From the NCBI GenBank assembly GCA_021790005.1, contig JAJYIP010000001.1, positions 50,623-114,622 on the forward strand: a DNA stretch of 64,000 bases. The letters run 5' to 3'. The stretch comes from a bacterium. Lineage in GTDB: Bacteria > Patescibacteriota > Saccharimonadia > Saccharimonadales > UBA4665. Made by a program: the position numbers and the translations under genes. A model generated the notes under the pieces. That model saw nothing but the letters and a program-made list of their open reading frames with translations, searched no databases and had not been told where the DNA came from. Each line of letters opens with the position of its first letter. Positions within the stretch are counted from its first letter, which is position 1. Below are positions 8,360-35,160 of the stretch, one piece after another.

Positions 8360-8521
8360 CGATTTAGTATATAACTCTAGGCTTAAAAAATCTTTACATG
8401 CTGGATTGATTATTTAGTTATGTTATTGGCAAGTCGGTACCTAGAGGTACACAACAAAAGAATAATTTATAGCATAAAACTCCTTGCAATAAAGAGTTAA
8501 ATAGGATAGTCTATTACGGAT

Positions 8522-8974: not shown

Positions 8975-8995
8975 ATAAGCAAGGCAGATTATTAA

Positions 8996-9577
8996 GTGAA
9001 CCATTATCCTGACGGGATAATCGGAATTGATGAAGTTGGCAGGGGTTGCTTAGCTGGACCCCTAGTCGTCGGAGCGGTTAAGCTCAATCATCTTATTGAA
9101 GGCCTGACAGACTCTAAGTTATTAAGTCCTAAAAAACGCGAACAGCTAAACGAGCTGATTATTCAACTGTCCGCTTGTGTCGGACTGGGTTGGGCCAGTG
9201 CGCAAGAAATCGATAGGCTGGGATTAAACGGTGCTCTTGGTCTGGCCGGTGAACGGGCGCTTGCTAAGTTTAAGTTGGTGGAGTCAAGGATTATTCTTGA
9301 CGGATCACAAAACTATTTAAGTAAATTCAGTAATGTTGAGACCATTATTAAGGCAGATTTGACGATTCCGGCGGTCAGTGCCGCATCGATTGTTGCCAAA
9401 GTTGCACGTGATCATTACATGCAAGCACTGTCTTTGGAAATAGGCGGTTACGGTTTTGAGCGGAACGTCGGTTATGGCACGATTGAGCACATGAGAGCCA
9501 TCGCCACTCTAGGAATAAGTTCGCAGCATCGTCGTTCGTTTGAGCCGATCAAGTCGATGGTTGCAAATGCAGCTTAA
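8996..9577 (+). CDS. rnhB: Ribonuclease HII
   Basis: 193 aa, GTG start. GIDEVGRGCLAGPLVVGAV and DSKLLSPKKRE motifs. Confidence 0.9.
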   Translation: MNHYPDGIIGIDEVGRGCLAGPLVVGAVKLNHLIEGLTDSKLLSPKKREQLNELIIQLSACVGLGWASAQEIDRLGLNGALGLAGERALAKFKLVESRIILDGSQNYLSKFSNVETIIKADLTIPAVSAASIVAKVARDHYMQALSLEIGGYGFERNVGYGTIEHMRAIATLGISSQHRRSFEPIKSMVANAA

Positions 9578-12120
9578 GCCGTGAAGAATTCAAGCAAGAT
9601 GTTCAGATCACGTTCGCGCCAGGCTGATTGCCATATGATTGTTTCAACTGCCTGATCTTTGCTGCGCTTGAATCCCTGGCTCATGTGTTGGTCGAAGAAT
9701 GCATTAAATTCTTTAAGAAAATCTATCCGGCTGAAGGCACTGGCTACGATGCGCGGCATCATGTAAAAACTCAGTTCGTTACCCAAATTATTATCTAACC
9801 AGTCCCAGTTATCCTTGATCCATTCCCAGGTTGCCAGTTTGGCGTATCGGTTAGACAGACTATAACTAATCCAGTAGGTGGCATCCTGTAAACGCACGTC
9901 CTTAGACTTAATCATGGCCAAGCTTTTAGTGATTAATTCCGGTTGCTTAAAGTTGGTTAAGCCGGCAGCCAATGTAATTTTTTCTTCGCTGTTTATCGTA
10001 GCCTTGTACATTTCTCTAAGTTCATTAAATGTTTTTTCAGCGCCGTGCTTGGCGACGGTCGTATAGACAACTCCCCGGATATCCGCTGGAATGGGTTTAG
10101 TCTGGTGGTCGTTAAAAAGTTTTTGAGCGGTCTTTATAGCAGCCGAATTGTCACTGGCGGTCATGAGACCAAGAATAAGGGGCCTCAGCAGAGTGTCGAA
10201 AATAGATTCATCAGGTTTTTGGTGCCATCCCAGCTTGTGGTATTGATCTTTAGCCAACTCGGCAATAAAAGGGTTCATTTTCGAACGCAGCTTATCATCA
10301 TCCATTACCCGGCGAATTTGACCAACGTTAGTACTTATAACATCCCAGACATACAGGCTATCTTCATGCTCATAGGCCTTGAGCAGGTCGAGGGCGGCCA
10401 AACTGCTGCCATAGCCGGCCTTGGCAGCTTCAAAGCTGTCAGCCAGTAACCCCTGTCGATCGAGGGGGCTTATTTTACCTTTTAAAATCGCTTGTTTTAA
10501 ACGCACGATATACCTATCGTTATAAGCAACTCTCGTAAAACTGCTGCGTCCCTGGTTGATTAATACCAGTTCAGCTTTGGACTTTAAAACAGTCTCGTAG
10601 TTAAGCTTGGTTAGTATATCCGTGCCAATATCTGAAGATGATGATAGGGGAATGGGCCAGATGGTATCGGCCTTAGTTATGGCCGGGTTCAAATAAAATC
10701 TGCTTTGATGCAAGCTGAGCTTACTATCCTCAATATCGGCGTGGATGATCGGATAGCCGGATTGTTTTGTCCATTGGTTCATAAATTGAGCAATTGGTTT
10801 ATTGGCTGCTTTTTCCCAGGCTTGCCATAGATCTTGACTTTCGCTGTTCGAGTAAGCGTGTTGTTTAAGGTATAGTCTAAGTCCGTTTTTGAAATCGGTT
10901 TCGCCTAAATAACGCATCAGCATAAATAGTACGCTGGCGCCTTTTTCATAACTGATACTGTCGAAGATGGTCCTGATTTCGTCGGGATGATGTATGTCGA
11001 CATTAATCGGGTGCGTACTTTCCAGGCTATCCAATCGAAAGGCCGCACTTTGTTCTTCAGTTATAAATTCATTCCAGACATGCCAATCAGGATGCAACTC
11101 GTCAATCGCCCGGTAACTCATCAGACTGGCGAAACTCTCATTTAGCCATAGATCATTCCACCAACGCATGGTAACGAGGTTGCCGAACCACTGGTGAGTC
11201 AGTTCGTGAGCTATAACATTGGCCACGTATTGTTTCATGTTTAGGCTGGTATTGTCATCGTCGACCAGTAAAGCTTGCTCACGGAAAGTAATCAGGCCCC
11301 AGTTTTCCATCGCTCCGGAAGAAAAGTCCGGCAATGCTACTAAATTACAGCTCGGTAGGGGATAATCGATCGCGAAGTATAGGTTATAAAAATCTAGACA
11401 AGCAATAGCTGTCTCCAGCGCGAAAGCAGTTTGCTGGACCAGCTCGGGTGTAGCATATGTTTTCACTACGATGCCGTTTTTAGTTTTGCCCTCTAAGGCG
11501 TCTAGTCTGCCGATTACGAAAGCTAACAAATAGGTGCTCATTTTGGGGGTAGGATAAAAACTGGTTTTGACCCGGTCATCAACTGTTGTCTGAGTAAGAA
11601 TATTGGTGTTGGCCAGGACGGTTTCGGACTTATGAGACATCAGACTTAAGTTAAATATCGCCTTGGCTTCTGGTTCATCAATACATGGGAAAACCTGCCG
11701 AGCGTAGTGACTTTCAAATTGGGTGGCTAAGATAACCTCTTCGTGGCCTTCGTAATCGTAAAAACAAGGATATAGCCCATCCATTGGCTTAGTTATTTTG
11801 CCGCTGAAGTCTATAGCTATGCTGTATTCACCAGGATAGAGCACCTCCGAGCCGTGCAGTCTTAGTTCATCGTAGCGTTTATGAATCGCTATCCGTTCCA
11901 GTTTGATTGTCTGATCGCCGGTTTTTCTATGAGCTGTAATTGTCGCCTGATTGATTCTAAGACCTTTAGCATGCAGGACAAGTCGTTTCGATGGTCGATG
12001 GGTCTTTACGCCACGGATGGTTACATGGCCGTTAAAGTCCATAGTTGCCTTATTTGGATCAATAAACAGTTCGTAGCTATGTGGCTTGAACTGTCTGAAT
12101 AAACGACGTACTGATTTCAT
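9574..12120 (-). CDS. pepN: M1 family aminopeptidase N
   Basis: 848 aa. GAMEN motif (SGAMENWG) and zinc site HELTHQWFGNLVT...WLNESFA. Confidence 0.92.
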   Translation of the reverse strand: MKSVRRLFRQFKPHSYELFIDPNKATMDFNGHVTIRGVKTHRPSKRLVLHAKGLRINQATITAHRKTGDQTIKLERIAIHKRYDELRLHGSEVLYPGEYSIAIDFSGKITKPMDGLYPCFYDYEGHEEVILATQFESHYARQVFPCIDEPEAKAIFNLSLMSHKSETVLANTNILTQTTVDDRVKTSFYPTPKMSTYLLAFVIGRLDALEGKTKNGIVVKTYATPELVQQTAFALETAIACLDFYNLYFAIDYPLPSCNLVALPDFSSGAMENWGLITFREQALLVDDDNTSLNMKQYVANVIAHELTHQWFGNLVTMRWWNDLWLNESFASLMSYRAIDELHPDWHVWNEFITEEQSAAFRLDSLESTHPINVDIHHPDEIRTIFDSISYEKGASVLFMLMRYLGETDFKNGLRLYLKQHAYSNSESQDLWQAWEKAANKPIAQFMNQWTKQSGYPIIHADIEDSKLSLHQSRFYLNPAITKADTIWPIPLSSSSDIGTDILTKLNYETVLKSKAELVLINQGRSSFTRVAYNDRYIVRLKQAILKGKISPLDRQGLLADSFEAAKAGYGSSLAALDLLKAYEHEDSLYVWDVISTNVGQIRRVMDDDKLRSKMNPFIAELAKDQYHKLGWHQKPDESIFDTLLRPLILGLMTASDNSAAIKTAQKLFNDHQTKPIPADIRGVVYTTVAKHGAEKTFNELREMYKATINSEEKITLAAGLTNFKQPELITKSLAMIKSKDVRLQDATYWISYSLSNRYAKLATWEWIKDNWDWLDNNLGNELSFYMMPRIVASAFSRIDFLKEFNAFFDQHMSQGFKRSKDQAVETIIWQSAWRERDLNILLEFFTA

Positions 12121-12198
12121 GACTATCCCTGTAGCTTGAATTAACTTCTAACAAGTTTAGCATGTCGGTTAAATCTTTCGACAATCCAAATAATATTA

Positions 12199-12297
12199 TT
12201 AATTACGTTCCTGATCGTTATCCCGGTTTAAGCGTTTGGCCAGCTCATGCCTGATTTTTTTAATCTCAATATCGCTTAACGGTTTTTTTACGGGCAT
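12199..12297 (-). CDS. Candidate small ORF, 32 aa (MPVKKPLSDIEIKKIRHELAKRLNRDNDQERN)
   Basis: Hand-translated; it falls below the ORF-track size cutoff. ATG at 12297-12295, TAA at 12201-12199, and a GGAG Shine-Dalgarno about 10 nt upstream of the ATG. I recognise no homology. Confidence 0.3.
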   Translation of the reverse strand: MPVKKPLSDIEIKKIRHELAKRLNRDNDQERN

Positions 12298-12379
12298 ATT
12301 TTAGCTTCTCCTAAGTTTTAGTAACCATAATAATGTAGCTTATGTGTCGGCCGCGACCTAGTATCATTTCTTACACAAA

Positions 12380-12409
12380 TTGACATAAAATAGGTTTATC
12401 TGGTAAATT
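12380..12409 (+). promoter_or_regulatory. Candidate sigma70-type promoter of nusA (TTGACA-18-TAAATT)
   Basis: A consensus -35 hexamer at 12380-12385 and an AT-rich -10-like hexamer at 12404-12409. It is the only plus-strand promoter-like element in the divergent spacer. Confidence 0.4.
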
Positions 12410-12420
12410 AAACTCAGATG

Positions 12421-12451
12421 ATCCGGCCGAAACCTTAGGTCGGATTTTTTA
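12421..12451 (+). terminator. Intrinsic-terminator-like hairpin in the nusA leader (candidate attenuator)
   Basis: AUCCGGCC (12421-28) pairs with GGUCGGAU (12438-45), giving 8 bp including one G-U pair, with a 9-nt loop. A run of 6 T follows immediately. It lies 30 nt upstream of the nusA ATG, and there is no upstream plus-strand gene for it to terminate. Confidence 0.5.
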
Positions 12452-12479
12452 GTGAAAAATATTTAAACAAAGGAAAATT

Positions 12480-13667
12480 ATGGATTTTGACTTTAAACAA
12501 CTGAGTGTCGCTATAAGGGCAATAGCTGAAGAAAAAAACTTACCGGAAGAAGCCGTTCAGGAAGTGGTTGAGCAGGCTTTGGCGGCTGCCTACCGTCGCG
12601 ATTACGGTGAGCGTGAGCAGGAAGTGCGCGTTAAAATGAATCTTAATACCGGTGACGTCGATGCTTATGTGTCTAAAGAAATTGTCGAGACTGTCTCTAA
12701 TCCGGCTTACGAAATATCTTTAAGCGAAGCTAAGACCCGTCAGAAAAACGCTGAGCTTGGTGAAACGATTGAAGTGCATGAAAAGGTCGAAAGTTTTGGT
12801 CGGGTCGCTGCCCAGACTGCTAAACAGGTCATTCTGCAGCGCCTAAGAGAAGCCGAGCGCGAGATCATTATGAGTGAGTTCGAAGACAAGATCGGTACGG
12901 TTATTAACGCTACGGTCGGCCGGGTTGAAGGTAGTGTGGTGCGAGTTGATCTGGGTAAAGCGCAAGGCATCATGCCACGCAGTGAACAAATCCAAGGTGA
13001 AAGATATTATCCCGGCCAACGCTTAAAGGTATATCTTAAAGACGTCGAGAGAGGCTTCCGTGGTCCACAGCTTATAGTAAGCCGCGGTAATCATGAATTT
13101 GTTGAATGGCTGTTTAGGAGTGAGGTTCCGGAAATGGAAAACGGAGCGGTTGAAATTAAGGCAATGTCCAGAGAAGCCGGCATCCGCTCCAAAATAGCCG
13201 TCTGGAGTAATGTGCCCGGAGTTGATCCGGTCGGTACTTTTGTCGGTGGACACGGTACGCGGGTCAATGCCGTAATGAGTGAGATTGGTGAACAGGAAAA
13301 GATCGACATTATTGTTTTTAGTGATAACCCGCTCGAATTTATTACCAACGCCTTAAGTCCAACTAAGGTTGCAAGTGTAACGATTGATCAGTCCGCTCAT
13401 AAGGCACAGGTATTGGTTCCGGAAGATCAGCTTAGTATAGCGATTGGCAAGGGCGGACAGAATGTACGTCTGGCCAGTAAGCTGACCGGTTATGAGCTGG
13501 ACATTGCGGCTGAAGCCATCAGTGCCAAACCTGCGGAAGTTAAGCCCGACACTGCTAGCCCTAAAAAAGACGAGCCGGCTACTAAGCCTGTACCGGGCAG
13601 GATTAAACGCAAAACCGAACTTGAATCCAGTCTGATTGAGGCCATCGAAGAGCACGGAGAGCAGTAA
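12480..13667 (+). CDS. nusA: Transcription termination/antitermination factor NusA
   Basis: 395 aa. N-terminal domain, S1 domain and two KH domains (LSIAIGKGGQNVRLASKLTG). AAGGA Shine-Dalgarno. Confidence 0.95.
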   Translation: MDFDFKQLSVAIRAIAEEKNLPEEAVQEVVEQALAAAYRRDYGEREQEVRVKMNLNTGDVDAYVSKEIVETVSNPAYEISLSEAKTRQKNAELGETIEVHEKVESFGRVAAQTAKQVILQRLREAEREIIMSEFEDKIGTVINATVGRVEGSVVRVDLGKAQGIMPRSEQIQGERYYPGQRLKVYLKDVERGFRGPQLIVSRGNHEFVEWLFRSEVPEMENGAVEIKAMSREAGIRSKIAVWSNVPGVDPVGTFVGGHGTRVNAVMSEIGEQEKIDIIVFSDNPLEFITNALSPTKVASVTIDQSAHKAQVLVPEDQLSIAIGKGGQNVRLASKLTGYELDIAAEAISAKPAEVKPDTASPKKDEPATKPVPGRIKRKTELESSLIEAIEEHGEQ

Positions 13668-18690: not shown

Positions 18691-21600
18691 CTAGGGATTT
18701 GACGTTGTAGCGGGTGTGGTTGTGCTTTGGTTGGGCGATGGATTGGTCGTTCCGGGAGGGTTAGTAGCAGTTGGTTGTGTGGGTTGGGGAACATAGGTGT
18801 CTTGCATCTGGGTTGTCTGCGAGGCTTGGTAAAGCACGCTGTCCGTTACGGTAGCCGTCACATCAATCGTTCCGGACGTGGCCGGCACATAGTGCAAGGT
18901 AACGGTTGACGGTGATGATACCACCGGGAAAGATTTAACTACACTACCCCCGATACTAATGTCTATCGTGCCACCAAAATTACTACCCCCGAGCGGATGG
19001 GTGCCCTGCGTCGCCGTCGCGACAATCACGCAACCCTGGCCGTTATTATCCAGACTGGAACAGGTTTGTGGCGTCGTCAAGGTTATAGTTGGCGGTTGAT
19101 CGCTACACTGGTGGATGGTGTCATAGGCATTAACTTGTTTTTGCTGGGTGTTAATTGTCTGGTTGGGAGGATAGAAGATGTCGATTGACCAGTTATTGGA
19201 ATCGGCGCCAGTAACAGTCTCCTTGGCGTCTGCTGGCGTACAACTTGTCGCCAAGTCGCCGGAAACTTTATCTAAGACTTGGGTACCGGTATTGGAACCG
19301 CTGCCCGTATACCAACTTGGAAAAATTTCTTTAGTTGGTCCCGGCTCCTCGGAGCCGATGCCCACATGGGTACGCTGGACAAAAGCTGGTAAGACTTTAA
19401 TATCTGCCGGCTGAACCCAGTTGACCGGTTTGGTTTTAATAGTCGACAGCGCCTGTTCAATTAAGGTTCTAGTTAATGGTTCGGTAATGTACTCCATCTG
19501 ACCCTCAACTAATGGTTTGTTGCGGGTGTGGTAGCCAACCCAGCTAACGACTGCATATTGTGTCGTCCAAGCCGTCATTAAACCTTCGAAGTTATAGTTG
19601 GTCGTACCGGTCTTTATGGCTATATCCCAGCCGTTGTAGCGGTGGAACTTATAACCACCGGCCGATAACGGTGAACAATTAAGAGCTGTGCAATATCCGG
19701 GCAAATACGACGCTCTCGGATCGGACAATATATTATCGATGATGTAGGCAGCGTCTGGTTTAACGGCTTGAGTGCCAGCGGGCTGCTTCCATTGGTAGAC
19801 GGTATGACCGGACGCGTCCGTGATATTTAAAATATATGTCTGGGGTAGTGTTTTGCCTAATCTGGCCAAAGTTGCATCACCGTTAACCTGGTGATCGATT
19901 GATATGTAGGCGCCATCACCGATACCGGCTGAGGCATAGCACTGGGTTTCCTGGTTGACTGAAGCTGTTTCAACATTAACACCGGGAACATAACACTTGT
20001 AGGCGTTTTTATAACCAGTCATGGCATCAACGGTATCGACGAACTTTTGTACCGATTTAACATGATCCGGACTAGTGTCGCCGGGAATTTCTTCCATGAC
20101 TGATTTAAGAGCTGGCACATTTCTTGAGCCGCCCAGAGCGTAGCGAATCGTTTCAGCCCCGGGATATCTAAAGTCATAGTCTTCGGCACAGTTGCCGCCG
20201 TTAAGTGGCGTATTGTGGTTAGTGCAAGGATAGCCTGGAATGGGCGACTGCGAATCATATAATACGCTACCGGCGCCGACATTATTATGATTATTTACTA
20301 GGGTCACATAGTTAAATGGTTTAATGCTTGAACCTGGTGAAATATTTATATCGGCATAGTTTATTTGGCCGTATTGCGGGTTATTGAAATTGGTGCCACC
20401 AACCAGAGCTTCGACTTGTCCGGTCTGAACATCTTCCAGTACGGTGGCCTCTTCGTCGGCCCTAGCTCGTTCGATAGTTGGAATATTGTTTTGAATATCT
20501 TGTTCGGCATAATTTTGCAGAGTCGTATTAAGCGTCGTGATAACTTTCCAACCACCGCGGTTGACAGTACTGGCGCCGTACATGCGCTCTAGTTGTTGTT
20601 TAGCTACCATGACGAAATAAGGAGCCTGAATATTTTGGTATTTACCTTGCAGTGGAAACACCTGGCTTAAAATATTCGTATTGATAGCCTGGTATTCCTG
20701 AGCCTGGGTGATATAGCCTTGCTGGTGCATGAGCATTAAGATGTAATCCATGCGACCAATTAACGCTCCTTTACTAAATGAGTTACCGGCTTCAGGATTA
20801 AATTGCGTACTGCCATAGGGAGAATAATAACTCGGTGATTGTGGTATTGCCGCCAGCATAGCGGACTGAGCCAGCGTTAAATTACTGGCATTGGTATGAA
20901 AGTAATCTTCGGCCGCCGCCTGAACACCATACTCGATACCTCCGTACGGTGCCATATTCAAATAACCGGTTAGAATTTGATCCTTAGAGTATTCCCGATT
21001 AATTTCAATCGATAAAATTAACTCCTTAATTTTTCTGGTAATAGTCCGGTTGTCCGTCCAGCCTTCGTTGAGTTTGACTAGCTGTTGGGTAATAGTCGAA
21101 CCGCCTTGCAGCCCGGCACCGACATGCAGGACGTCGTGAAAGGCTGCCCGGAAAATACCGCGGATATCAATTGCACCTTCCGTATAAAAACCCTTATCTT
21201 CTATCGCTACAGTTGCTTCTTTCATGTACGGAGATATCTGATTGCTTGGCACGGGCATGCGTTTGACGGCGTTATAGTCCTGCCAGAGTAGGATTTTGCC
21301 GGTACGATCGTAGTAGCTGATACTGCCGCCCAGGTTTTGGCCGGATATATTCTTGAGTGCAGGTAGATCCTTGCGGTAGTAGGCGAACAGACCAATCGTG
21401 CCGAAGAAGCTGAGTACTATAAAGACACCAATGACCTTCAGGCCCATAATGACGCCTTCTTTTGAAAACCAGTATTCAAGCAAATGCTTTGGCTTTAAGC
21501 GCACCGCCCAGCGTTTCCAGCGTTCCTTAGGTAAACTGGCTAAATACTCGGCTTTGGCGGCATTTCTAGCGGCGTGTTTTTCTTGGCGTCGATTGGTCAG

Positions 21601-21693
21601 GCTGGTGTTTAATTTCATCGACTTGGCACTACGATTACGACCAGTACGGTTGGAATTGGCGCGACGTCTGCCACTACTGTTGTTTCTGTTCAC
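18691..21693 (-). CDS. Class A penicillin-binding protein (glycosyltransferase plus transpeptidase) with long terminal extensions
   Basis: 1000 aa, GTG start with a GAGGGG Shine-Dalgarno. GT51 motifs (EDKGFYTEGAIDIRG, GGSTITQQLVK) and SxxK (SPGSSIKPF). A C-terminal extension of about 300 aa ends in a Pro/Thr-rich tail. Confidence 0.9.
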   Translation of the reverse strand: MNRNNSSGRRRANSNRTGRNRSAKSMKLNTSLTNRRQEKHAARNAAKAEYLASLPKERWKRWAVRLKPKHLLEYWFSKEGVIMGLKVIGVFIVLSFFGTIGLFAYYRKDLPALKNISGQNLGGSISYYDRTGKILLWQDYNAVKRMPVPSNQISPYMKEATVAIEDKGFYTEGAIDIRGIFRAAFHDVLHVGAGLQGGSTITQQLVKLNEGWTDNRTITRKIKELILSIEINREYSKDQILTGYLNMAPYGGIEYGVQAAAEDYFHTNASNLTLAQSAMLAAIPQSPSYYSPYGSTQFNPEAGNSFSKGALIGRMDYILMLMHQQGYITQAQEYQAINTNILSQVFPLQGKYQNIQAPYFVMVAKQQLERMYGASTVNRGGWKVITTLNTTLQNYAEQDIQNNIPTIERARADEEATVLEDVQTGQVEALVGGTNFNNPQYGQINYADINISPGSSIKPFNYVTLVNNHNNVGAGSVLYDSQSPIPGYPCTNHNTPLNGGNCAEDYDFRYPGAETIRYALGGSRNVPALKSVMEEIPGDTSPDHVKSVQKFVDTVDAMTGYKNAYKCYVPGVNVETASVNQETQCYASAGIGDGAYISIDHQVNGDATLARLGKTLPQTYILNITDASGHTVYQWKQPAGTQAVKPDAAYIIDNILSDPRASYLPGYCTALNCSPLSAGGYKFHRYNGWDIAIKTGTTNYNFEGLMTAWTTQYAVVSWVGYHTRNKPLVEGQMEYITEPLTRTLIEQALSTIKTKPVNWVQPADIKVLPAFVQRTHVGIGSEEPGPTKEIFPSWYTGSGSNTGTQVLDKVSGDLATSCTPADAKETVTGADSNNWSIDIFYPPNQTINTQQKQVNAYDTIHQCSDQPPTITLTTPQTCSSLDNNGQGCVIVATATQGTHPLGGSNFGGTIDISIGGSVVKSFPVVSSPSTVTLHYVPATSGTIDVTATVTDSVLYQASQTTQMQDTYVPQPTQPTATNPPGTTNPSPNQSTTTPATTSNP

Positions 21694-25162: not shown

Positions 25163-25978
25163 ATGTATTCAGGATCAACACTAACTAAAGCATCCGGTCG
25201 AATCATGGGTGCACATCAGAAAATTGACCGACTGGCCGCCAAGCAACTGAAAAAGTTGCTGAACGATCGGCCGAATAATTTTCCACGCACCAACTACGTT
25301 ATTTTATTTGAAGGCAATAACGGTCCGGATGCCATTAAAAGGAAGAGTCCGTTCGCCAAAGACGAACCCTGGCACTTTATTCAGCCTGATGATGATACGG
25401 ATATTGAACTACTGGCAATTATTAAATACCACTATGACCAGCTGGTCTTAAGTATTCGTGCCAATGATGAAGTTAGAGCTGGTTTTGAGGCGGCTTGGCT
25501 GGCCCATGCCATGGTTGATGGTTTAACACCGGCCCATCATTTTCCTTATGGGGATAAGGTCAGTGAATTGCTCGGAGGGATTAGAATGGATGAACGCGAA
25601 GGTGTCAAAGACAGAATATTAATGTCTGGCGCCAGCGTATCTAAAATGTTGGTTAATAACTGGCGTTTTTGGGGGCCAAAAGGTGTTTTTACAACTCATG
25701 CGGCTTTTGAGCTTGGTATAGCTACGATCCTGAAACCAATCCAATACCCCCAGAATATATGCGATGGCCACCATATGGCTTACGTCGATAGCTCGAATAT
25801 CCGGCAGTGGTATCGCCAGACTGCCAAGTCAGTCAACGAATATGATTTTTACGATCGCTTTTATAAAGACGGCTGGACGAGAAGTTTGGCCAGTGATGTT
25901 AGAAAACAGCTTATACCTGTGCTAGTTAGGGCAGTGGCGTTGGCTTGGTACGGCGCTGCTATTGAAGCTGAGTCTTAA
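25163..25978 (+). CDS. Hypothetical protein (His-rich possible metal site HAMVDGLTPAHH)
   Basis: 271-aa ORF packed between recG (4-nt gap) and rsmD (5-nt gap). I cannot assign a family with confidence. Confidence 0.55.
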   Translation: MYSGSTLTKASGRIMGAHQKIDRLAAKQLKKLLNDRPNNFPRTNYVILFEGNNGPDAIKRKSPFAKDEPWHFIQPDDDTDIELLAIIKYHYDQLVLSIRANDEVRAGFEAAWLAHAMVDGLTPAHHFPYGDKVSELLGGIRMDEREGVKDRILMSGASVSKMLVNNWRFWGPKGVFTTHAAFELGIATILKPIQYPQNICDGHHMAYVDSSNIRQWYRQTAKSVNEYDFYDRFYKDGWTRSLASDVRKQLIPVLVRAVALAWYGAAIEAES

Positions 25979-26531: not shown

Positions 26532-27257
26532 TCAAACCTTATTGGTTGGTGTATTTTTAAAGCTGACGATTTGATGGTAGAGAATAGCCGGCATGAACGC
26601 GGTTACATATGAGAGCGTGCTTAAAAATATTACGCCAAAAGTTAGTGACGAAAACAAAATATCCAGCACAATTAAGATTAACAAGGTGAGTAGATAGACG
26701 TTCCAGATATCTTCAAAGTATGGTTTAGTAGCAGTTAAAGACATTTTAAATATTTCAGCTAAACTAAGGTTGGGATTGTCAGCTGCGAAGTACGGCATGA
26801 GAATCAGGCGCGGGAAGAAGACAATGAAAGGCACGATTAGCGCCAGTATGGACAAAATTAGTCCTATGTAACTAACAGCGGCGCTTAACAGGATCTTGCT
26901 ATACTTTTGCTTGCCGATTCTATAGCATTCAGCTAGAGTTGGCGGCGTACGTTTTTTGGCGGACTCGTTGAAAAAATAAATTGCCGGGCTATAGTTAATT
27001 ATCTGCCAGATAGTACCCAGTACTATCAAGCTAATGCCTAAGTACAAATTATTATCTAGTACATGATCCTTGGTATAATTAATCGCTCCACTATGAAAAT
27101 ACAATGAGCCTAAAGCTGTCACTAATGATGGCAGTAAAAGCATAATGCCGATTTGCTCATATCCCTTTAGGCATAGGGAATAACTCTGCATCAGTATATC
27201 TAGACTTGGCATGAGTTTGTGTTTGTTGGGCATCGTGGAATTTTGAGTTGACTTCAT
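26532..27257 (-). CDS. Hypothetical polytopic membrane protein
   Basis: 241-aa ORF with about 5-6 hydrophobic segments. I recognise no family. Confidence 0.6.
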   Translation of the reverse strand: MKSTQNSTMPNKHKLMPSLDILMQSYSLCLKGYEQIGIMLLLPSLVTALGSLYFHSGAINYTKDHVLDNNLYLGISLIVLGTIWQIINYSPAIYFFNESAKKRTPPTLAECYRIGKQKYSKILLSAAVSYIGLILSILALIVPFIVFFPRLILMPYFAADNPNLSLAEIFKMSLTATKPYFEDIWNVYLLTLLILIVLDILFSSLTFGVIFLSTLSYVTAFMPAILYHQIVSFKNTPTNKV

Positions 27258-27511: not shown

Positions 27512-28807
27512 ATGAAACTTCCAACAGCGCCCTACAAAGGAGCGCGTGATTTTTATCCGGAGGATAAACGCCGCCAGGACTATATGTTCGGCGTGCTCAG
27601 GCGTGTCGTCAAAAGTTACGGCTATGAAGAGTATGACGCCCCTATTCTAGAGGCGTTAGATCTATACAAGGCTAAAAGCGGCCAGGAAATTGTTAGTGAG
27701 CAAACCTATAGTTTTGTCGATCGAGGCGGGCGCGAAGTGGCAATTCGTCCGGAAATGACGCCGACAGTCAGCCGCATGGTGGCGGCCAAACGTCAAGAAC
27801 TCGCGTATCCGCTGCGTTGGTTTTCAATTCCCAACCTTTGGCGTTACGAACGACCCCAGCGCGGTCGATTGCGCGAGCACTGGCAACTTAACGTGGATAT
27901 TTTCGGTGTGGCCAATACTAACGCTGAGTTGGAACTTATCTTTGTGGCCGACGACATTTTCCAGTCCTTTCATGCCACCCGTGAGATGTACCAGATTAAA
28001 ATAAACCACCGTCAGCTAACCGACTACATCCTGAGTGATTATTTACAGCTAACTCATGAGCAAGGTTACGCTTTAATTAAGCTGATTGATCGTAAATCTA
28101 AAATGGAACCGTTTCGTTTCATTGAACAATTGGACGCAATACTGACCCCTGAACAAAAACAAAACTCGCTGAGCGAAAAACTGCTTGACGTGCTTGACGC
28201 CAAAGATATCCAAGGCCTACCAAAAGAATTGTTAAATTGCCCACCGGCGTTGGAGTTAAGCGCTATGATCCAGTCGTTAGTCGCCCACGGACTGACTAAC
28301 GTTATATTCGACCCGACAATAATGCGCGGCTTTGACTATTACAGCGGCATCGTGTTTGAGGTTTTTGATACCCATCCGGATAATAACCGCTCCATGATGG
28401 GCGGCGGACGTTATGACGGCCTGGTTGGTATGTTCGGAGTTGATCCGGTTCCGACCGCCGGGTTTGGTCTAGGCGACGCCACACTGGCTAACTTCATAGA
28501 ACTACACAACCTGATGCCTAAGTTAGCCAATGAAACCGTACTCTACATCGCCGTCTTACTTGATGAAATTGAGGCGGGCTTAGCTATTGCCAGACGTTTT
28601 AGGCAAGCAGGTATTAATTGCGCCATTGACGTTAGCGGACGCAAACTCGGCGATCAACTTAAAACCGCTCAAAAAAAGCAAATCAATAACGTCCTGATCA
28701 TCGGACCGGATGAGATCAAGGCCAACAAGTATACTCTTAAAAATATGGATAGCTCTAAGGAAGTAAAACTCACACTCGATCAGGTTGTATTAAAGCTAAC
28801 CAAATAA
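27512..28807 (+). CDS. hisS: Histidine--tRNA ligase
   Basis: 431 aa. Class II motifs (RPEMTPT, WRYERPQRGRLREHWQ, GGGRYD) and a C-terminal anticodon-binding domain. Confidence 0.92.
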   Translation: MKLPTAPYKGARDFYPEDKRRQDYMFGVLRRVVKSYGYEEYDAPILEALDLYKAKSGQEIVSEQTYSFVDRGGREVAIRPEMTPTVSRMVAAKRQELAYPLRWFSIPNLWRYERPQRGRLREHWQLNVDIFGVANTNAELELIFVADDIFQSFHATREMYQIKINHRQLTDYILSDYLQLTHEQGYALIKLIDRKSKMEPFRFIEQLDAILTPEQKQNSLSEKLLDVLDAKDIQGLPKELLNCPPALELSAMIQSLVAHGLTNVIFDPTIMRGFDYYSGIVFEVFDTHPDNNRSMMGGGRYDGLVGMFGVDPVPTAGFGLGDATLANFIELHNLMPKLANETVLYIAVLLDEIEAGLAIARRFRQAGINCAIDVSGRKLGDQLKTAQKKQINNVLIIGPDEIKANKYTLKNMDSSKEVKLTLDQVVLKLTK

Positions 28808-28903
28808 ACCTAATCAGTTCCTAATAATTTTGTTCTGTATTCTTTCTATCCCGCTTGTGCTATATTACAAATAATTCCCTAGCCTATTATGTGAGGGGTA
28901 AAG

Positions 28904-31900
28904 TTGCGAGATATACACACACAAAGCAAACATGGAGTGAAAGATTTTCGAAACTTAGATAGAAAATCCTATGAGAATAGTGACTTAAACCTGTCCGGAA
29001 TGACTCATGCCAGGTGCTTGAGCCAACCGCAAAAGCTGACTAAACAACTAATAGACACGCACGCTAAAGTTCACAATAATGTACACTGCCGGGCAATAAG
29101 ACGCTTTCTGTCTAAACACAAGCCAACCAGGCGGATCATCAAGCAATACTTTCACTCCAAGCTGATCATCAAGCACTGGCTTAAACGTTTGTTTCCGCCT
29201 ATCAAGCGAGCCAAAGATGCTATTAGGTATGTGGTTTACGCAGTCGTTATCCTGAGCGTCAGTCTAAGTCCGCTGATTGTCTACGTGCACGGTTCAGGAC
29301 CTAAAACCTTATCTTATCAAGCTGGCTTGTTGCTTAACAAACCCGACATGAAATTATTTAACGGCACCAGACTTGATCTAGCCAAGAATGATTATGTAGT
29401 CAATGAAAGTGGTCTAGGAGCCGTTAGTCGCTTGCCACAAAACGTTTTGGTCGGTCAGCCCGGTACTGGGATTTACAGCGCCAGGATCCCGGTCGATTTA
29501 AGTAAGGGTATTTCCATAACTGATGACATTAATAATCTAAGCTTCGGTTTAACGCCTGACTTTACAACTTCCACCGTCAATAAAACGTCAAGCGGTCACT
29601 TCGTTTACAACCTTGGCAACGGCGCCGTCCAAGCCGTTTACACCCCTCAAAAAACTCAATTGGCTGAGGATATAGTAGTTAATCATAACGTCGGTAATGT
29701 TTTAGAGTTTCCATATACTCTCAATCTGCCTAAAGGTTTTAAAGCCTTTAGTATTGCTGGTGGCAGCATTGGTATTGAAGGTGCCGGCAATGTTGATTTC
29801 AGCCTGACAGCTCCTGTTATAAAACAAAGCAACGCTCAGACCATAAAATCTTCAACCACCAAACTAATCCTCAAGAAAAACAAAGTCTATCTCTTAGCCG
29901 TAGGACTTAAACAGCTATCTTATCCAATATCTATTGACCCTAGTATTACCATTAACACCCAAACCAATTTCAACGCCGGCAACAACGAAGGCGACATCAA
30001 CGCCACTAATAGCCAGTTCAGTGAAGGGCAGGCAACAGGTGGAGCGCTTGATCCTTGCGGAGCCAATTGGGCTCAGGGAATACCCGGTTGGTGTTACAGC
30101 GGCAATGCCACCACCAGCCTGCCGGCCGCCACCGAATATGCCACCTCCGTTGTCTACAACGGCTATGTCTATGAGATCGGAGGATGGAACGGGTCTGCCG
30201 GTGTTACCACCGTCGATTACGCACCGATCTACGCCGACGGTGCGCTTGGCACCTGGACCGCCACTACTAGCCTTCCGGCCGCCACCGACGGTGCCACTTC
30301 CGTCGTCTACAACGGCTATGTTTATGAGATAGGAGGATATACTACGGCCGCCCTTGCCACCGTCGACTACGCCCCGATTAATTCTAATGGTACGCTGGGC
30401 ACATGGACCGCCACCACCAGTTTGCCGGCCGCCAACGATAGTGCCACCTCCGTCGTCTATAACGGCTATGTCTATCAGATAGGGGGAGGTAACGGGTCTG
30501 CCTATCTCGCCACCGTCGACTATGCTCCAATAAACTCTAACGGCACGCTTGGCACCTGGACCGCCACTACCAGTTTGCTGGCAGCCACTGAATACGCCAC
30601 CTCCGTCGTCTATAACGGCTATGTCTATGAGATCGGAGGATGGAACGGGTCTGTCGTCGTTACCACCGTCGATTATGCCCCGATCAACGCCAACGGCACG
30701 CTCGGTACCTGGACCGCCACCACCAGCCTGCCTGCCACCACCGAATATGCCACTTCCGTCGTCTACAACGGCTATGTCTATGAGATTGGAGGATATACTA
30801 CGGCCGCCCTTGCCACCGTAGACTACGCCCCAATAAACGCCAACGGCACGCTCGGCACATGGACCGCCACCACCAGCCTGCCGGCCGCTACCGATAGTGC
30901 CACCTCCGTCGTCTATAACGGCTATGTCTATGAGATAGGAGGGGTCACTACGGTCGTCGTTGCTACCGTCGACTACGCCCCGATCAACGCCAACGGCGCG
31001 CTGGGCACATGGACTGCCACCAACAGCCTGCCGGCCACCACCGAAGACGCCACCTCCGTCGTATATAATGGCTACGTCTACGAGATAGGGGGATATAATG
31101 GTTCTGCCTATCTCGCCACCGTCGACTATGCTCCAATAAACTCTAACGGCACGCTTGGTGCATGGACTGCCACCACCAGCCTACCGGCCACCACCATCTT
31201 CGCCACCTCCGTTGTCTACAACGGCTATGTCTACGAGATCGGAGGATGGAACGGGTCTGCCGGTGTTACCACCGTCGACTACGCTCCAATAAACTCTAAT
31301 GGCACAATCGGTGCATGGACCGCCACCAACAGCCTGCCGGCCACCACCGAAGACGCCACCTCCGTCGTCTACAACGGCTACGTCTACGAGATAGGGGGAG
31401 ATAATGGAACTGCCGCCGTTGCCACCGTCGTCCTGGTTAGTATATTTCCAGCAGGTTATATAGGTAACCCAACCGGTTCAGGTCAAAATGGGTGGGGATC
31501 AACAACCGGATTACCGGCTACCAAATCGAAAGGGCAGTCTTATTACCCGTACGACGCCACCTCCGTCGTCTATAACGGCTATGTTTATGAGATAGGGGGA
31601 GTTGATTCTGGTGCCACTGCCACCGTCGACTACGCACCAATAAACGCCAACGGCACGCTCGGTGCATGGACCGCCACTACCAGTTTGCTGGCCGCTACCC
31701 AAGACGCCACTTCCGTCGTCTATAACGGCTATGTTTATGAGATTGGAGGATATAATGGAACTGCCGCCGTTGCCACCGTCGACTACGCACCAATCAACTC
31801 TAACGGCACGCTCGGTGCATGGACCGCCACTACCAGCCTGCTGGCCGCTACCCAACAAGCCACCTCCGTCGTCTATAGCGGCTATGTTTATGAGATTGGA

Positions 31901-33799
31901 GGATATAATGGAACTGCCGCCGTTGCCACCGTCGACTACGCACCAATCAACTCTAACGGCACGCTCGGTGCATGGACCGCCACTACCAGTTTGCTGGCCG
32001 TCACCGAATATGCCACTTCCGTCGTCTATAACGGCTATGTCTATGAGATAGGGGGAGATAACGGGTCTGCAACCCTCGCTACCGTCGACTACGCCCCGAT
32101 CAACGCCAACGGCACGCTGGGCACATGGACCGCCACCACCAGCCTGCCGGACGCCAATTACCAGGCCACCTCCGTCGTATATAATGGCTACATTTATGAG
32201 ATCGGGGGTTGGAGATATACTACCGCTCTCTCTGCCACCGTCGACTATGCCCCGATCAACGCCAACGGCACGCTGGGCACATGGACCGCCACCACCAGCC
32301 TGCCGTCCGCCACCTACGCTGCCACTTCCGTCGTATATAACGGCTACGTCTACGAGATCGGAGGATGGAACGGGTCTGCCGGTGTTACCAACGTCGACTA
32401 TGGGTTTATCAACAACGGAGGACCAGGAACTACAGGTTCTTATACTACCACCACCAGTTTGCCCGGCGCCGCCTATGATGTCACCTCCGTTATCTACAAC
32501 GGCTATGTCTATGAGATTGGGGGATATACCGGTTCTGCCAATCTAGCCTTTGTCGACTACGCCCCAATAAATTCTAATGGCACACTTGGCGCGTGGACCG
32601 CTGCCACTAGCCTGCCGACTGCCACCAATGATGCCACCTCCGTCGCCTACAACGGCTATGTCTATGAGATCGGAGGGAATACCAGCTCTGGTATTGTTTC
32701 CACCGTCGATTACGCCCCAATAAATTCTGACGGCACGCTTGGGTCGTGGACCGCTACCACCAGCCTGCCGGTTACCACTGATCTAGCCACCTCCGTCGCC
32801 TACAACGGCTATGTCTATGAGATCGGAGGATATAACGGTTCTGCCATCACCGCCACCGTCGATTACGCCCCAATTAATGCCAACGGCACGCTTGGGTCGT
32901 GGACCGCTACCACCAGCCTGCCGGTTACCACTGATCTAGCCACCTCCGTCGCCTACAACGGCTATGTCTATGAGATCGGAGGATATAACGGTTCTGCCAT
33001 CACCGCCACCATCGACTACGCCCCAATAAATTCTGACGGCACGCTTGGGTCGTGGACCGCTACCACCAGCCTGTCGGTCGGCACTGATCAAGCCACCTCC
33101 GTCGCCTACAACGGCTATGTCTATGAGATCGGAGGGGCTACCGCCACCGTCGATTACGCCCCAATAAATTCTGACGGCACGCTTGGGTCGTGGACCGCTA
33201 CCACCAGCCTGCCAGCTGCCATATCTAGTGCCACCTCCGTCGTTTACAACGGCTATGTCTATGAGATCGGGGGATATACCAGTGCTCCCGTTGCCACCAT
33301 CGACTACGCCCCACTGAATGTCATTCCCAGAATTGGTTACTACTCTATGCTGGTTAATGTAGGCTATGGTGTTGATGTAACACCGGTTTCTATTCTGGTA
33401 AACGGTAGCAATACAGGCAATCCTGGCATAGGAGGATTAGCCGGTGTTGGTTCAGGTGGTATGCAAATAACATATAGCAATGCGTCGACGACGTGTACTA
33501 CGCTCAGTCCGGAAAAATACGTTAACCTGATCGATAATGAACTGACCAATCCTTTCGCTATGCCCTTAACTAATGACGGGTGCGGTAATACTACGGCGGT
33601 GGGAGATGATGTTTTTGTCAGGTTTACGCTTGATGACAGTCAGACAGCGACCTTCCCAGATATTAACGGCAACCATACCACCATTACAGGTTTTAATATC
33701 TTTTACCATCCAGCCAGCAGTATGAGACTCAGGGGAGGTGCTACTTTCAGCAACGGTTCATTGCAGAGTCTGGATGCGCCACCTACGCCCGTACAGTAG
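28904..33799 (+). CDS. Giant membrane-anchored surface protein with 21 tandem Kelch-like repeats
   Basis: 1631 aa. TTG start with a GAGGGG Shine-Dalgarno 6 nt upstream (alternative ATG at 28932). Basic N-terminal region of about 105 aa, one TM segment (YVVYAVVILSVSLSPLIVYV), a non-repetitive region of about 270 aa, 21 units matching the Kelch pattern (VDYAPIN.NGTLG.WTATTSLP....ATSVVYNGYVYEIGG), then a unique C-terminal domain of about 190 aa. Confidence 0.85.
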   Translation: MRDIHTQSKHGVKDFRNLDRKSYENSDLNLSGMTHARCLSQPQKLTKQLIDTHAKVHNNVHCRAIRRFLSKHKPTRRIIKQYFHSKLIIKHWLKRLFPPIKRAKDAIRYVVYAVVILSVSLSPLIVYVHGSGPKTLSYQAGLLLNKPDMKLFNGTRLDLAKNDYVVNESGLGAVSRLPQNVLVGQPGTGIYSARIPVDLSKGISITDDINNLSFGLTPDFTTSTVNKTSSGHFVYNLGNGAVQAVYTPQKTQLAEDIVVNHNVGNVLEFPYTLNLPKGFKAFSIAGGSIGIEGAGNVDFSLTAPVIKQSNAQTIKSSTTKLILKKNKVYLLAVGLKQLSYPISIDPSITINTQTNFNAGNNEGDINATNSQFSEGQATGGALDPCGANWAQGIPGWCYSGNATTSLPAATEYATSVVYNGYVYEIGGWNGSAGVTTVDYAPIYADGALGTWTATTSLPAATDGATSVVYNGYVYEIGGYTTAALATVDYAPINSNGTLGTWTATTSLPAANDSATSVVYNGYVYQIGGGNGSAYLATVDYAPINSNGTLGTWTATTSLLAATEYATSVVYNGYVYEIGGWNGSVVVTTVDYAPINANGTLGTWTATTSLPATTEYATSVVYNGYVYEIGGYTTAALATVDYAPINANGTLGTWTATTSLPAATDSATSVVYNGYVYEIGGVTTVVVATVDYAPINANGALGTWTATNSLPATTEDATSVVYNGYVYEIGGYNGSAYLATVDYAPINSNGTLGAWTATTSLPATTIFATSVVYNGYVYEIGGWNGSAGVTTVDYAPINSNGTIGAWTATNSLPATTEDATSVVYNGYVYEIGGDNGTAAVATVVLVSIFPAGYIGNPTGSGQNGWGSTTGLPATKSKGQSYYPYDATSVVYNGYVYEIGGVDSGATATVDYAPINANGTLGAWTATTSLLAATQDATSVVYNGYVYEIGGYNGTAAVATVDYAPINSNGTLGAWTATTSLLAATQQATSVVYSGYVYEIGGYNGTAAVATVDYAPINSNGTLGAWTATTSLLAVTEYATSVVYNGYVYEIGGDNGSATLATVDYAPINANGTLGTWTATTSLPDANYQATSVVYNGYIYEIGGWRYTTALSATVDYAPINANGTLGTWTATTSLPSATYAATSVVYNGYVYEIGGWNGSAGVTNVDYGFINNGGPGTTGSYTTTTSLPGAAYDVTSVIYNGYVYEIGGYTGSANLAFVDYAPINSNGTLGAWTAATSLPTATNDATSVAYNGYVYEIGGNTSSGIVSTVDYAPINSDGTLGSWTATTSLPVTTDLATSVAYNGYVYEIGGYNGSAITATVDYAPINANGTLGSWTATTSLPVTTDLATSVAYNGYVYEIGGYNGSAITATIDYAPINSDGTLGSWTATTSLSVGTDQATSVAYNGYVYEIGGATATVDYAPINSDGTLGSWTATTSLPAAISSATSVVYNGYVYEIGGYTSAPVATIDYAPLNVIPRIGYYSMLVNVGYGVDVTPVSILVNGSNTGNPGIGGLAGVGSGGMQITYSNASTTCTTLSPEKYVNLIDNELTNPFAMPLTNDGCGNTTAVGDDVFVRFTLDDSQTATFPDINGNHTTITGFNIFYHPASSMRLRGGATFSNGSLQSLDAPPTPVQ
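30107..33318 (+). repeat. In-frame tandem repeat array, 21 units, mostly 153 bp (138-200 bp range)
   Basis: Counted from 21 occurrences of Y(N/S)GY(V/I)Y(E/Q)IGG in the translation. Successive TGG (Trp) landmarks at 32747, 32900 and 33053 are exactly 153 nt apart. Confidence 0.9.
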
Positions 33800-33873: not shown

Positions 33874-35160
33874 ATGAAAATAACCTCTGAAGCCATTAAT
33901 AAGACCAAAGTTAAACTTGACATACAGGCGGACTTAAGCGAGCTAGCTCTTGCTAAGAAACAGGCGCTAACTAACCTAGCTCGTAACGTCAGAGTGCCGG
34001 GGTTTAGAGCCGGCAGTGCTCCGGCAGCAATGGTTGAAAAGCAACTTGACCCGAATGTTTTAGCTGAAGAGACGCTCAATCTTGCTCTTAATGCCATCTA
34101 CTCGACGGCTTTAATTCAAGAGAAACTAAGAGCAGTCAATAATCCGGAAATAAGCGTTACTGTCTACGTGCCATATACCCAGTTAGAGTTTAGCGCTACG
34201 CTAGATATTGTCGGTAAGCTTAGCTTAGGCCAATACAAAGACTTAAACGTAGCCAAGGATATGGTTAATGTCTCTAGTAAAGAAGTCAACCAAGTTATCG
34301 AGAGACTAAGAAATCAACTGGCAATGAAAAATGAAGTCGATCGGGCAGCCAAAAACGGTGATGAAGTAGTATTGGATTTTAAGGGCGTAGACACTAAAAC
34401 TAAAGAGCCTATCTCAGGAGCTGACGGCAAAGATTATCCGCTGATTCTTGGCAGTAATAGTTTTATTCCCGGATTTGAAGATCAGTTGATCGGACTTAAG
34501 AAAGATGAGACTAAGGATTTTGACATTACTTTTCCCGAAGATTACGGGGCTACTAATCTAAGAAAAAAGCAAGTCAGCTTTAATGTAAGCATCAAAAGCG
34601 TCAACGAGCGCTCTTTGCCAACGGTGGATGATGCCATGGCTAAACTCGTCGGACCGTTTACCACCCTAAGTGAACTTAAAGCCGACATTAAAAAAGAGCT
34701 GAGCACAAATGCTGAACGTGAAGCGGCCTCCAAGCAGCAGAATGAATTACTAGAAAAAATTGTCTCAGCGTCTAACGTAGACATACCAGAAGCTTTAATC
34801 GATGAAGAAACCGATCGATTGGAGCGTGAGCAAAGACAAAACGCCACTTATGGTGGACTGACTTGGAAAGAGTATTTAGAGCGTGACAATTTAGATGAGA
34901 CCTCTTTTAAAGAGCTGGCAAAACAACAAGCGCTCATCCGTATCAAGACGGGCCTGATTCTTGGCGAGATTGCCGCTCAAGAAAATATTACGGTCACTGA
35001 AGCTGAGCTGGATGCTAAGATGGATGAACTCAAGTCGACCTATACCGGTGATCAAGCGATGCAAACTGAACTTAAGAAGCCAGAGAACCGTCAGGACATT
35101 AAAAACCGGCTGATGGTTGAAAAGACTATCGAGTACTTGGTCTCCGTTAACAAAAAGTAG
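33874..35160 (+). CDS. tig: Trigger factor
   Basis: 428 aa. Ribosome-binding N-domain (GFRAGSAP signature), FKBP-type PPIase middle domain and C-terminal arm domain. Confidence 0.92.
   Translation: MKITSEAINKTKVKLDIQADLSELALAKKQALTNLARNVRVPGFRAGSAPAAMVEKQLDPNVLAEETLNLALNAIYSTALIQEKLRAVNNPEISVTVYVPYTQLEFSATLDIVGKLSLGQYKDLNVAKDMVNVSSKEVNQVIERLRNQLAMKNEVDRAAKNGDEVVLDFKGVDTKTKEPISGADGKDYPLILGSNSFIPGFEDQLIGLKKDETKDFDITFPEDYGATNLRKKQVSFNVSIKSVNERSLPTVDDAMAKLVGPFTTLSELKADIKKELSTNAEREAASKQQNELLEKIVSASNVDIPEALIDEETDRLEREQRQNATYGGLTWKEYLERDNLDETSFKELAKQQALIRIKTGLILGEIAAQENITVTEAELDAKMDELKSTYTGDQAMQTELKKPENRQDIKNRLMVEKTIEYLVSVNKK

Follow-up and report, generated by a model that had tools for sequence, protein, structure and literature searches.

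The longest open reading frame (ORF) of the window analysed here, a 64-kb stretch (64,000 nucleotides) of contig JAJYIP010000001.1 from a member of the Saccharimonadales, encodes a protein of 1631 amino acids (aa) whose central part consists of 21 tandem Kelch blades. We consider it very probable that this protein is anchored in the membrane by a single N-terminal transmembrane segment and that it carries, outside the cell, a conserved beta-rich ectodomain, three Kelch propeller segments of 9, 6 and 6 blades, and a conserved Cys-containing C-terminal domain. On balance, it is probably best explained as an anchored tri-propeller protein that binds at the cell surface and diversifies rapidly. 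The evidence comes from the repeat units, predicted structures, the charge distribution around the transmembrane segment, and comparison with a large family of relatives in which conserved end domains enclose a fast-changing blade array.

Kelch blades and the propeller plan

The gene and the parts of its product are listed below, with positions of the window and, where they apply, residues of the protein.

28904 to 33799, plus strand: the ORF, 1631 aa, TTG start, stop at 33799
28893 to 28898, plus strand: Shine-Dalgarno-like GAGGGG, 5 nt before the TTG start, read from the sequence
28904 to 29218, plus strand: aa 1-105, basic His-rich tail with 25 K/R, 9 H and 7 D/E, predicted cytoplasmic
29219 to 29293, plus strand: aa 106-130, putative single transmembrane segment (signal anchor, N-in/C-out), Kyte-Doolittle 19-residue mean up to 2.37
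29294 to 30031, plus strand: aa 131-376, membrane-proximal all-beta domain (N-ecto) followed by a low-confidence linker, from the family profile and AlphaFold2 (AF2)
30032 to 31399, plus strand: aa 377-832, Kelch units 1-9, first propeller segment, from repeat anchors and landmark segmentation
31400 to 32365, plus strand: aa 833-1154, Kelch units 10-15, second propeller, unit 10 with a 'PAG' loop (16-aa insert)
32366 to 33274, plus strand: aa 1155-1457, Kelch units 16-21, third propeller, unit 16 with an 'NNGGPGT' inter-propeller loop
33275 to 33796, plus strand: aa 1458-1631, extra C strand (IDYAPLN) that would close propeller 3, then the family-specific C-terminal beta domain, from family comparison and AF2

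The repeat units are Kelch blades. A motif search found 21 anchors matching Y[NS]GY[VI]Y[EQ]IGG, the same number of units as counted in a previous sequence-only reading of the window, spaced 50-53 aa apart except at unit 10 (67 aa) and unit 21 (46 aa). All 21 units, of 46-67 aa, contain the GG doublet and the conserved Tyr and Trp at the fixed spacing characteristic of Kelch, within the consensus xxNGSAxxATVDYAPINSNGTLGxWTATTSLPAATxxATSVVYNGYVYEIGG, and Tandem Repeats Finder (TRF) reported the corresponding arrays of 153-nt period with scores of 1410-1670. The Kelch signature that the sequence-only reading had recognised is borne out by Pfam, in which Kelch_1 (PF01344) matched 16 stretches with 138 bits against a cut-off of 20.1 (E=6.2e-41), and by phmmer searches of the Protein Data Bank (PDB), which matched KLHL2/3/12/17/20, Keap1 and the symmetric designer protein SAKe6.

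Two AF2 models built on a 50-sequence family alignment, covering aa 833-1631 and aa 131-1309, reached a mean predicted local distance difference test (pLDDT) score of 85.3 and 84.3, respectively. DSSP assigned a four-strand pattern to every unit, and the pLDDT of units 10-15 was mostly >90. Searched with Foldseek, stretches of ~300 residues superposed on six-bladed Kelch domains with TM-scores of 0.80-0.86 and root-mean-square deviations (rmsd) of 2.8-3.1, for example on 6n3h_A (TMt 0.80-0.81, rmsd 2.9-3.1) and 5yy8 (TMt 0.86, rmsd 2.8), and also on LZTR1 (TMt 0.77). Structure prediction, proposed with the initial reading as a check on the propellers, therefore returned them: the models predict closed propellers of four-stranded blades with a six-bladed fold, the ring closure of units 1-9 excepted. 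Foldseek also aligned the whole model, as a chain of propellers, to the YWTD propeller strings of LRP2/megalin (8jx8_A, 9qaw_A); these belong to another repeat family, and at TM-scores of only 0.14-0.17 the likeness lies in the overall layout alone.

The grouping of blades into propellers emerges from the family. The MAFFT consensus of 50 relatives has 18 blades and presents divergent C-D loops at fixed places, in blade 7 ('...I.PAG...') and in blade 13 ('...INNGG.GT.G...'). Segmentation at these PAG and NNGG landmarks, applied to the 57 relatives in which both landmarks are unique and no blade was missed, revealed a 6+6+6 plan in 35 of them, while the others are mostly one blade short or show multiples of six (6+6+12, 12+6+6). 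The complete genes found on three longer contigs (21 kb, 33 kb and a 764-kb chromosome) likewise encode 18 blades each, and the length distribution of the wider family, with its peak at 1400-1599 aa, is consistent with this number. The window protein does not follow the 6+6+6 plan, although both landmark loops are present: they fall in units 10 and 16 and delimit a 9+6+6 arrangement, the sole such case among the 57. The sequence-only reading had proposed about three stacked or tandem propellers. Its three segments stand, but the seven blades that it implied for each do not, as the landmarks give 9+6+6 here and 6+6+6 in the family rather than 7+7+7, and nothing points to stacking.

Unit 1 begins at its D strand and an extra C strand, modelled as a strand by AF2, follows the last GG (aa 1466-1472), so that the landmark C-D loops would be where the chain leaves one propeller and enters another. 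Closure seems to follow a '1+3' scheme, in which the D strand that begins a propeller pairs with its terminal A, B and C strands. This putative closure, with an N-terminal D and C-terminal A-C strands, differs from the register described for Keap1.

A few relatives have further segments or insertions. P0005 (24 blades) and P0006 (20 counted) are four-segment variants with an extra run of 5-6 blades, at aa ~1119-1500 and aa ~1169-1472, respectively. In both, the hairpin VDYAALxSIPRVGxYSMLVN, which normally opens the C-terminal domain, precedes the extra run, and the real C-terminal domain follows it; a fourth propeller would therefore have been inserted behind the hairpin. P0002 (2519 aa, 30 blades, 12+6+6+6) carries a 262-aa non-Kelch insert between two propellers, at aa 892-1153.

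Two kinds of Kelch protein, one of them designed, offer near comparisons. The BTB-Kelch adaptors (Keap1, KLHL2/3/12/17/20, NS1-BP, LZTR1) share with the window protein the GG/Tyr/Trp signature and the predicted six-bladed ring. Unlike them, the window protein is bacterial, membrane-anchored and predicted to be extracytoplasmic, and bears three propellers of nearly identical blades on one chain. Membership of the BTB-Kelch (KLHL) family is rejected: no BTB or BACK domain was matched in Pfam, and the N-terminus consists of the tail, the transmembrane segment and an unrelated beta domain. SAKe6, which is among the best PDB matches in both sequence and structure, resembles the window protein in its near-perfectly repeated blades but is artificial, soluble and limited to a single propeller.

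Topology, flanking domains and family

The tail that precedes the transmembrane segment measures ~105-109 aa and is conserved in frame, from ~aa 20 on, in the syntenic ortholog P0013 of locus L027. Residues ~107-130 form the sole strong hydrophobic segment of the protein; a second transmembrane segment at aa 835-853 was considered and rejected, being less hydrophobic and a beta strand in the AF2 model. This composition agrees with the basic, His/Lys/Arg-rich N-terminus of ~105 aa and single transmembrane segment of the sequence-only reading. The net charge is +19 before the segment and +3 in the 30 residues after it. In the 169 relatives that have a hydrophobic segment near the N-terminus, the tail has a median charge of +11; the medians for the 20 residues just before the segment and the 30 just after it are +5 and +1, respectively, and 91% have more positive charge before the segment than after. 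By the positive-inside rule, this asymmetry would place the propellers outside the cell, here as in those 91%, rather than in the cytoplasm, which would have undermined the initial proposal. We thus infer a type II (N-in, C-out) single-pass protein that would be exposed at the surface. The cysteines of the predicted extracytoplasmic part come in pairs (385/397 and 1531/1560) and relatives show Cys-bracketed loop insertions; both features fit an extracytoplasmic location, though neither proves it. Anchoring by a sortase is rejected, since the window protein has neither an LPxTG motif nor a C-terminal hydrophobic stretch and ends in a hydrophilic C-terminus (...SLDAPPTPVQ).

Two conserved domains enclose the blades. 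The first, N-ecto, together with its linker corresponds to the unique region that had been put at ~270 aa and that measures 246 aa here (aa 131-376); AF2 predicts ~18 strands for aa 141-350, with pLDDT ~77-88. It was present in 95 of the 120 first-round homologs (phmmer, window protein as query) and starts within the first ~240 residues in 150 of the 150 matches listed; the window protein is 33-52% identical to the other 20 members of alignment A4. A profile search with N-ecto, run exhaustively, retrieved 1035 clusters at 50% identity, 393 of them at E<=1e-30. The second is the Cys-containing C-terminal domain, whose existence had been noted correctly but whose length is 174 aa and not ~190. 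Cys 1531 and Cys 1560 are both invariant in the family and lie in a domain marked by the motif TLDDSQTATFPD..GNHTTIT..YHPA...RLRGG.TF.NGSLQSLDAPP. AF2 predicts the strand at aa 1466-1472 and 5 further strands after it (pLDDT 43-84). The domain is clearly detectable in 51 of the 120 first-round homologs, and distant members keep a divergent motif, DDS...FPD...T.Y...RLRGG..F....LD. Searched as a profile, it brought up nothing beyond short pieces of proteins of this family and revealed no further architecture. Searches of Pfam, NCBIfam and the PDB with the tail, N-ecto and the C-terminal domain, as single sequences, as profiles and member by member, gave nothing above noise; the sequence relatives of the tail are limited to close orthologs.

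Apart from the blade plan, the window protein displays the hallmarks of this family, namely a basic tail with a single transmembrane segment, N-ecto after that segment, and a C-terminal domain with two invariant Cys. Every homolog or locus record that names a taxon names Saccharibacteria, Saccharimonadales or 'Patescibacteria group', and the family is apparently restricted to the Saccharibacteria/Patescibacteria lineage. Several genomes contain two or more copies. On one Saccharibacteria contig (L018), two family genes lie in tandem, at 3951-8486 and 8615-12850: the latter encodes N-ecto, ~18 blades and the C-terminal domain, and the former a protein of 1511 aa, the length of P0065, in which the C-terminal domain was matched and 16 blades were counted besides a gap of 189 aa. 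P0007, a Kelch protein of the Saccharibacteria type (L001, 6581-11366; L002, 6398-11057), adjoins a COX2-COX1-COX3-COX4 and UbiA cluster, a terminal oxidase module.

A full-text search of one literature library found no paper on this family, nor any on Kelch proteins of Saccharibacteria or Patescibacteria. While the Kelch fold itself is ordinary, its combination with a transmembrane anchor, a new ectodomain and a new C-terminal domain, in three six-bladed propellers connected via C-D loops, appears to be undescribed, as do the size of the family, its apparent lineage restriction and its cassette-like blade array.

Blade array evolution, blade count and genomic setting

Identity between the window and the syntenic locus L027 reaches 79% for RecG, 76% for HisS, 79% for N-ecto and 77% for the C-terminal domain. 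Over the blade array it is 41% (compared lengths 1376 aa vs 1081 aa), and the blades of P0013 carry many Cys-bracketed inserts. The window array is closer to those of non-syntenic relatives (66-70% identity) than to that of L027. The 18 canonical blades differ from one another in two loops only, the B-C loop (8 residues after GG, positions 1-8) and the D-A loop (6 residues before ATSVVY, unit positions 32-37); these are the loops that form the ligand pocket of Keap1 (PMC12314335).

Invariant scaffold residues are encoded by mixed synonymous codons (Tyr by TAC 11 times and TAT 10 times; Ile by ATC 10, ATA 7 and ATT 4 times), indicating that their constancy stems from purifying selection and not from recent copying. 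Blades are 76.8% alike within one protein vs 69.5% and 73.9% between two proteins, and blades at matching positions of two proteins are no closer than random pairs, which argues for homogenisation by recombination. Unequal recombination and gene conversion between blades would keep the scaffold uniform while altering blade number, and would let the B-C and D-A loops, on the face that binds ligands in Keap1, diversify quickly. The G+C content at third codon positions (GC3) of the blade array (30032-33274) is 0.61-0.67, with C3 at ~0.5 (GCC 76%, GTC 74%, ACC 67%), and is 0.42-0.51 in the other domains of the gene (28904-30031 and 33275-33796) and in hisS, tig, clpP and rpoBC. Among the relatives, L004, L013 and L003 display this shift too, L001 and L017 do so to a lesser degree, and L027 lacks it. 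It might stem from GC-biased gene conversion, from founder codons or from replacement of the cassette.

The first segment bears traces of its own history. TRF detected a 456-nt (three-unit) period over 30106-31404, and the unit pairs 2/5, 3/6 and 4/8 are mutual best matches with 85-89% DNA identity, a sign that three blades were duplicated long ago. In the AF2 model, the C and D strands of units 6 and 7 are longer than usual. The nine blades might form a nine-bladed ring, a 6+3 arrangement or a 3+3 dimerisation. Natural propellers are known with 4 to 12 blades (PMC8458387), and designer repeats are able to change blade number (bioRxiv 10.1101/2021.04.12.439409) and to form rings whose blades come from more than one molecule (PMC7337062). 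In the last of these arrangements, the three surplus blades of each of two molecules might together build a six-bladed propeller, and the protein would then be dimeric.

Alternatively, the count of 21 blades could be an assembly error in an otherwise real gene that has 18 or 24. The 9+6+6 arrangement is unique among the 57 segmented relatives, first segments of 12 blades do occur (P0002, P0064), and the exact window protein was found on one contig alone, its cluster being single-member and an exact look-up in the contig collection returning no match. Moreover, sets of database relatives whose counts diverge by whole blades (18/16, 17/15, 13/10/8) suggest that short-read assemblies of this family often collapse the repeats. 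Yet the most similar pairs within units 1-9 are just 85-89% identical in DNA, no unit pair of the gene exceeds 92%, and the longest exact internal repeat (128 nt, at 32730 and 32883) lies in units 18-20, outside the nine-blade segment; a collapse or expansion artefact is therefore unlikely in that segment. As the reading frame is also unbroken across all unit junctions, we regard the assembly-error explanation as quite unlikely. The concern raised with the sequence-only reading, that the gene might be a collapsed or expanded assembly artefact, is unlikely to hold for the gene as a whole, the odd nine-blade count being less secure. In the sets P0008/P0010 (18/16), P0020/P0042 (17/15), P0040/P0050 (18/16) and P0025/P0036/P0031 (13/10/8), the N-termini and most unit spacings are shared and the differences consist of whole blades; either short-read repeat collapse or real copy-number variation would account for them.

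The gene lies between hisS (27512-28807) and tig (33874-35160), and both this location and the TTG start were read correctly in the initial annotation, as was its rank as by far the largest non-housekeeping gene of the window. The TTG start is credible because of the GAGGGG sequence 5 nt upstream, because the NCBI protein for the same contig has the identical 1631 residues, and because in L027 the tail residues equivalent to those before the first ATG of the window gene (M33) are conserved in frame. That ortholog has no ATG in the stretch matching the residues before M33. Its basic tail and transmembrane segment are encoded in frame at 7459-8000 of L027, upstream of the annotated ATG of P0013; the database version of P0013 lacks its N-terminal part, and starts other than ATG seem to be in use in the family. 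A promoter and terminator scan gave counts near or within ~2 standard deviations of shuffled controls and no site at either gene boundary. Other reading frames of the array contain Pro/Ser-rich ORFs, 90-132 aa long (29934-30332, 30549-30821, 31662-32051 and 32184-32546 on the plus strand, 31511-31858 on the minus strand); they are shadows of the repeats, not genes.

The local gene order is tyrS-recG-?-rsmD-(membrane protein)-tRNA-Leu-hisS-X-tig-clpP-rpoB, with X the window gene. Two neighbours have no Pfam match and keep their position in L027: a 271-aa protein (25163-25978, plus strand), with 89% identity, and a 241-aa protein with long hydrophobic stretches (26532-27257, minus strand), with 51% identity. 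In placement, a 272-aa gene without Pfam match also lies between recG and rsmD in L004. Further upstream, a 1000-aa protein (18691-21693, minus strand) contains a transglycosylase domain at aa 141-296, the only part recognised by Pfam; the remainder amounts to ~700 residues.

Candidate functions

We propose that the basic cytoplasmic tail and the transmembrane helix would hold the protein in the membrane, with the conserved beta-rich ectodomain, the three Kelch propellers in series and the conserved Cys-containing beta domain at the far end all outside the cell. The propellers would act as a multivalent binding module for an extracellular target, most probably a polymer or protein with a repetitive structure on the surface of a host or partner cell, while anchor, spacer and cap would be provided by the conserved end domains. 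The type II anchor, the propellers predicted to face outward, the fast-changing array with its variation on the Kelch ligand face, the expansion of paralogs and the apparent lineage restriction together favour a binding protein. Binding itself, the ligand and the involvement of a host are inferred, and a binding, adhesin or lectin-like role directed at the surface of a partner cell falls slightly short of an even chance in our estimation. A part in adhesion or host recognition is plausible, the hypervariable array between conserved domains lending it indirect support. Cultivated members of the Saccharibacteria lineage live attached to other bacteria (PMC11623550).

A propeller has also been implicated in host binding in this lineage. 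PilX2 of Nanosynbacter lyticus TM7x, a type IV pilus minor pilin, bears a seven-bladed RCC1 propeller to which such a role is attributed (PMC11623550). It resembles the window protein in having a beta-propeller and coming from a Saccharibacterium, but its repeats are of the RCC1 family, its propeller is single and it sits on a pilus instead of a transmembrane anchor; we claim no homology.

Several observations weigh against a partner-binding function. No ligand-binding residues were identified in the window protein. The conspicuous inserts of P0013 are in the C-D loops, on the opposite face, which leaves the binding face uncertain. The nine-blade first segment breaks the six-blade rule, with three units above the family norm. 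Among the 50 Foldseek matches listed, both multi-domain models gave Kelch and propeller matches only, so that the roles given to N-ecto and the C-terminal domain are guesses. The array may be hypervariable because phages or host defence put an exposed structural protein under pressure, and not because it tracks a ligand. The highly conserved end domains and the housekeeping surroundings of the gene, whose order tyrS-recG-...-hisS-X-tig-clpP-rpoB is common to three genomes, fit a constitutive envelope role as well as they fit an adhesin.

The last of these points lead to the main rival explanation, in which the protein is a structural component of the envelope (a coat resembling an S-layer, a spacer, or a wall-to-membrane scaffold) and its propellers make homotypic or cell-wall contacts. 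A large, single-pass anchored protein would suit this role, and so would a large family with a fixed 6+6+6 plan, end domains as similar between the window and L027 as RecG and HisS are, and a conserved place among housekeeping genes in three genomes. However, lattice contacts are normally conserved, whereas close relatives differ here by replacement or divergence of the blade array; paralogs occur in unrelated contexts, and no SLH, LysM or LPxTG wall-binding or S-layer domain was found in the window protein. We therefore hold an envelope role to be unlikely, though still to be taken seriously.

The window protein could also be a transmembrane sensor, in which ligand binding by the propellers is relayed through the helix to the basic cytoplasmic tail. 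At 109 aa, with a net charge of +19 and 9 His, its tail is exceptionally long for the family, in which the medians are 47 aa and 2 His, and hosts of Saccharibacteria do possess beta-propeller sensors at their surface (EsrA, PMC13622651). On the other hand, the tail contains no recognisable domain, varies in length and is conserved among close orthologs only, and no signalling partner gene lies nearby, which makes this explanation very unlikely.

Enzymatic function is the least probable of all, and membership of the enzyme families concerned is effectively refuted. Many relatives bear the label 'N-acetylneuraminic acid mutarotase' in the JGI collection, and the window protein does share with NanM and the cyclically permuted mutarotase family the Kelch fold, a bacterial origin and a location outside the cytoplasm. 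NanM, however, is a single soluble propeller with a catalytic site, and the matches of the window protein to these families are weak, falling far under the curated cut-offs (25.1 vs 45 bits for PF24996 NANM, 21.9 vs 243.2 bits for TIGR03548); identity with NanM or a mutarotase is rejected. Galactose oxidase is an extracellular protein in which a Kelch propeller stands between beta-rich domains (beta-sandwich, propeller, beta-sandwich). The window protein resembles this layout in having its Kelch propellers flanked by beta-rich domains, but the enzyme possesses just one propeller, of seven blades, together with a copper site. A galactose-oxidase-like oxidase is rejected as well, as the flanking domains gave no DUF1929, F5/8-C or other catalytic-domain match (Pfam, E<=10) and the best structural matches are six-bladed. 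Near-identical blades, furthermore, leave no unique active site.

Beyond the window protein, the family might be a principal outward-facing recognition device of environmental Saccharibacteria, with an exchangeable blade cassette held between a conserved anchor and a conserved cap. This is a speculative extension that we consider unlikely. Recombination between blades and between genes would remodel the cassette, through changes in blade number, loop diversification and possibly replacement of the whole array, and this remodelling would track the surfaces of hosts or partners, or allow escape from host sensors and phages.

These results correct a widespread automatic annotation, 'N-acetylneuraminic acid mutarotase', and provide a natural example of nearly ideal Kelch repeats arranged as three propellers per chain, one of which departs from six blades per propeller. 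Among the means by which Saccharibacteria and other Patescibacteria recognise and hold other cells, type IV pili alone are well studied (PMC11623550). How these bacteria recognise and hold other cells is otherwise largely unknown, and the family described here offers a testable candidate for partner recognition or for envelope architecture in environmental Saccharibacteria.

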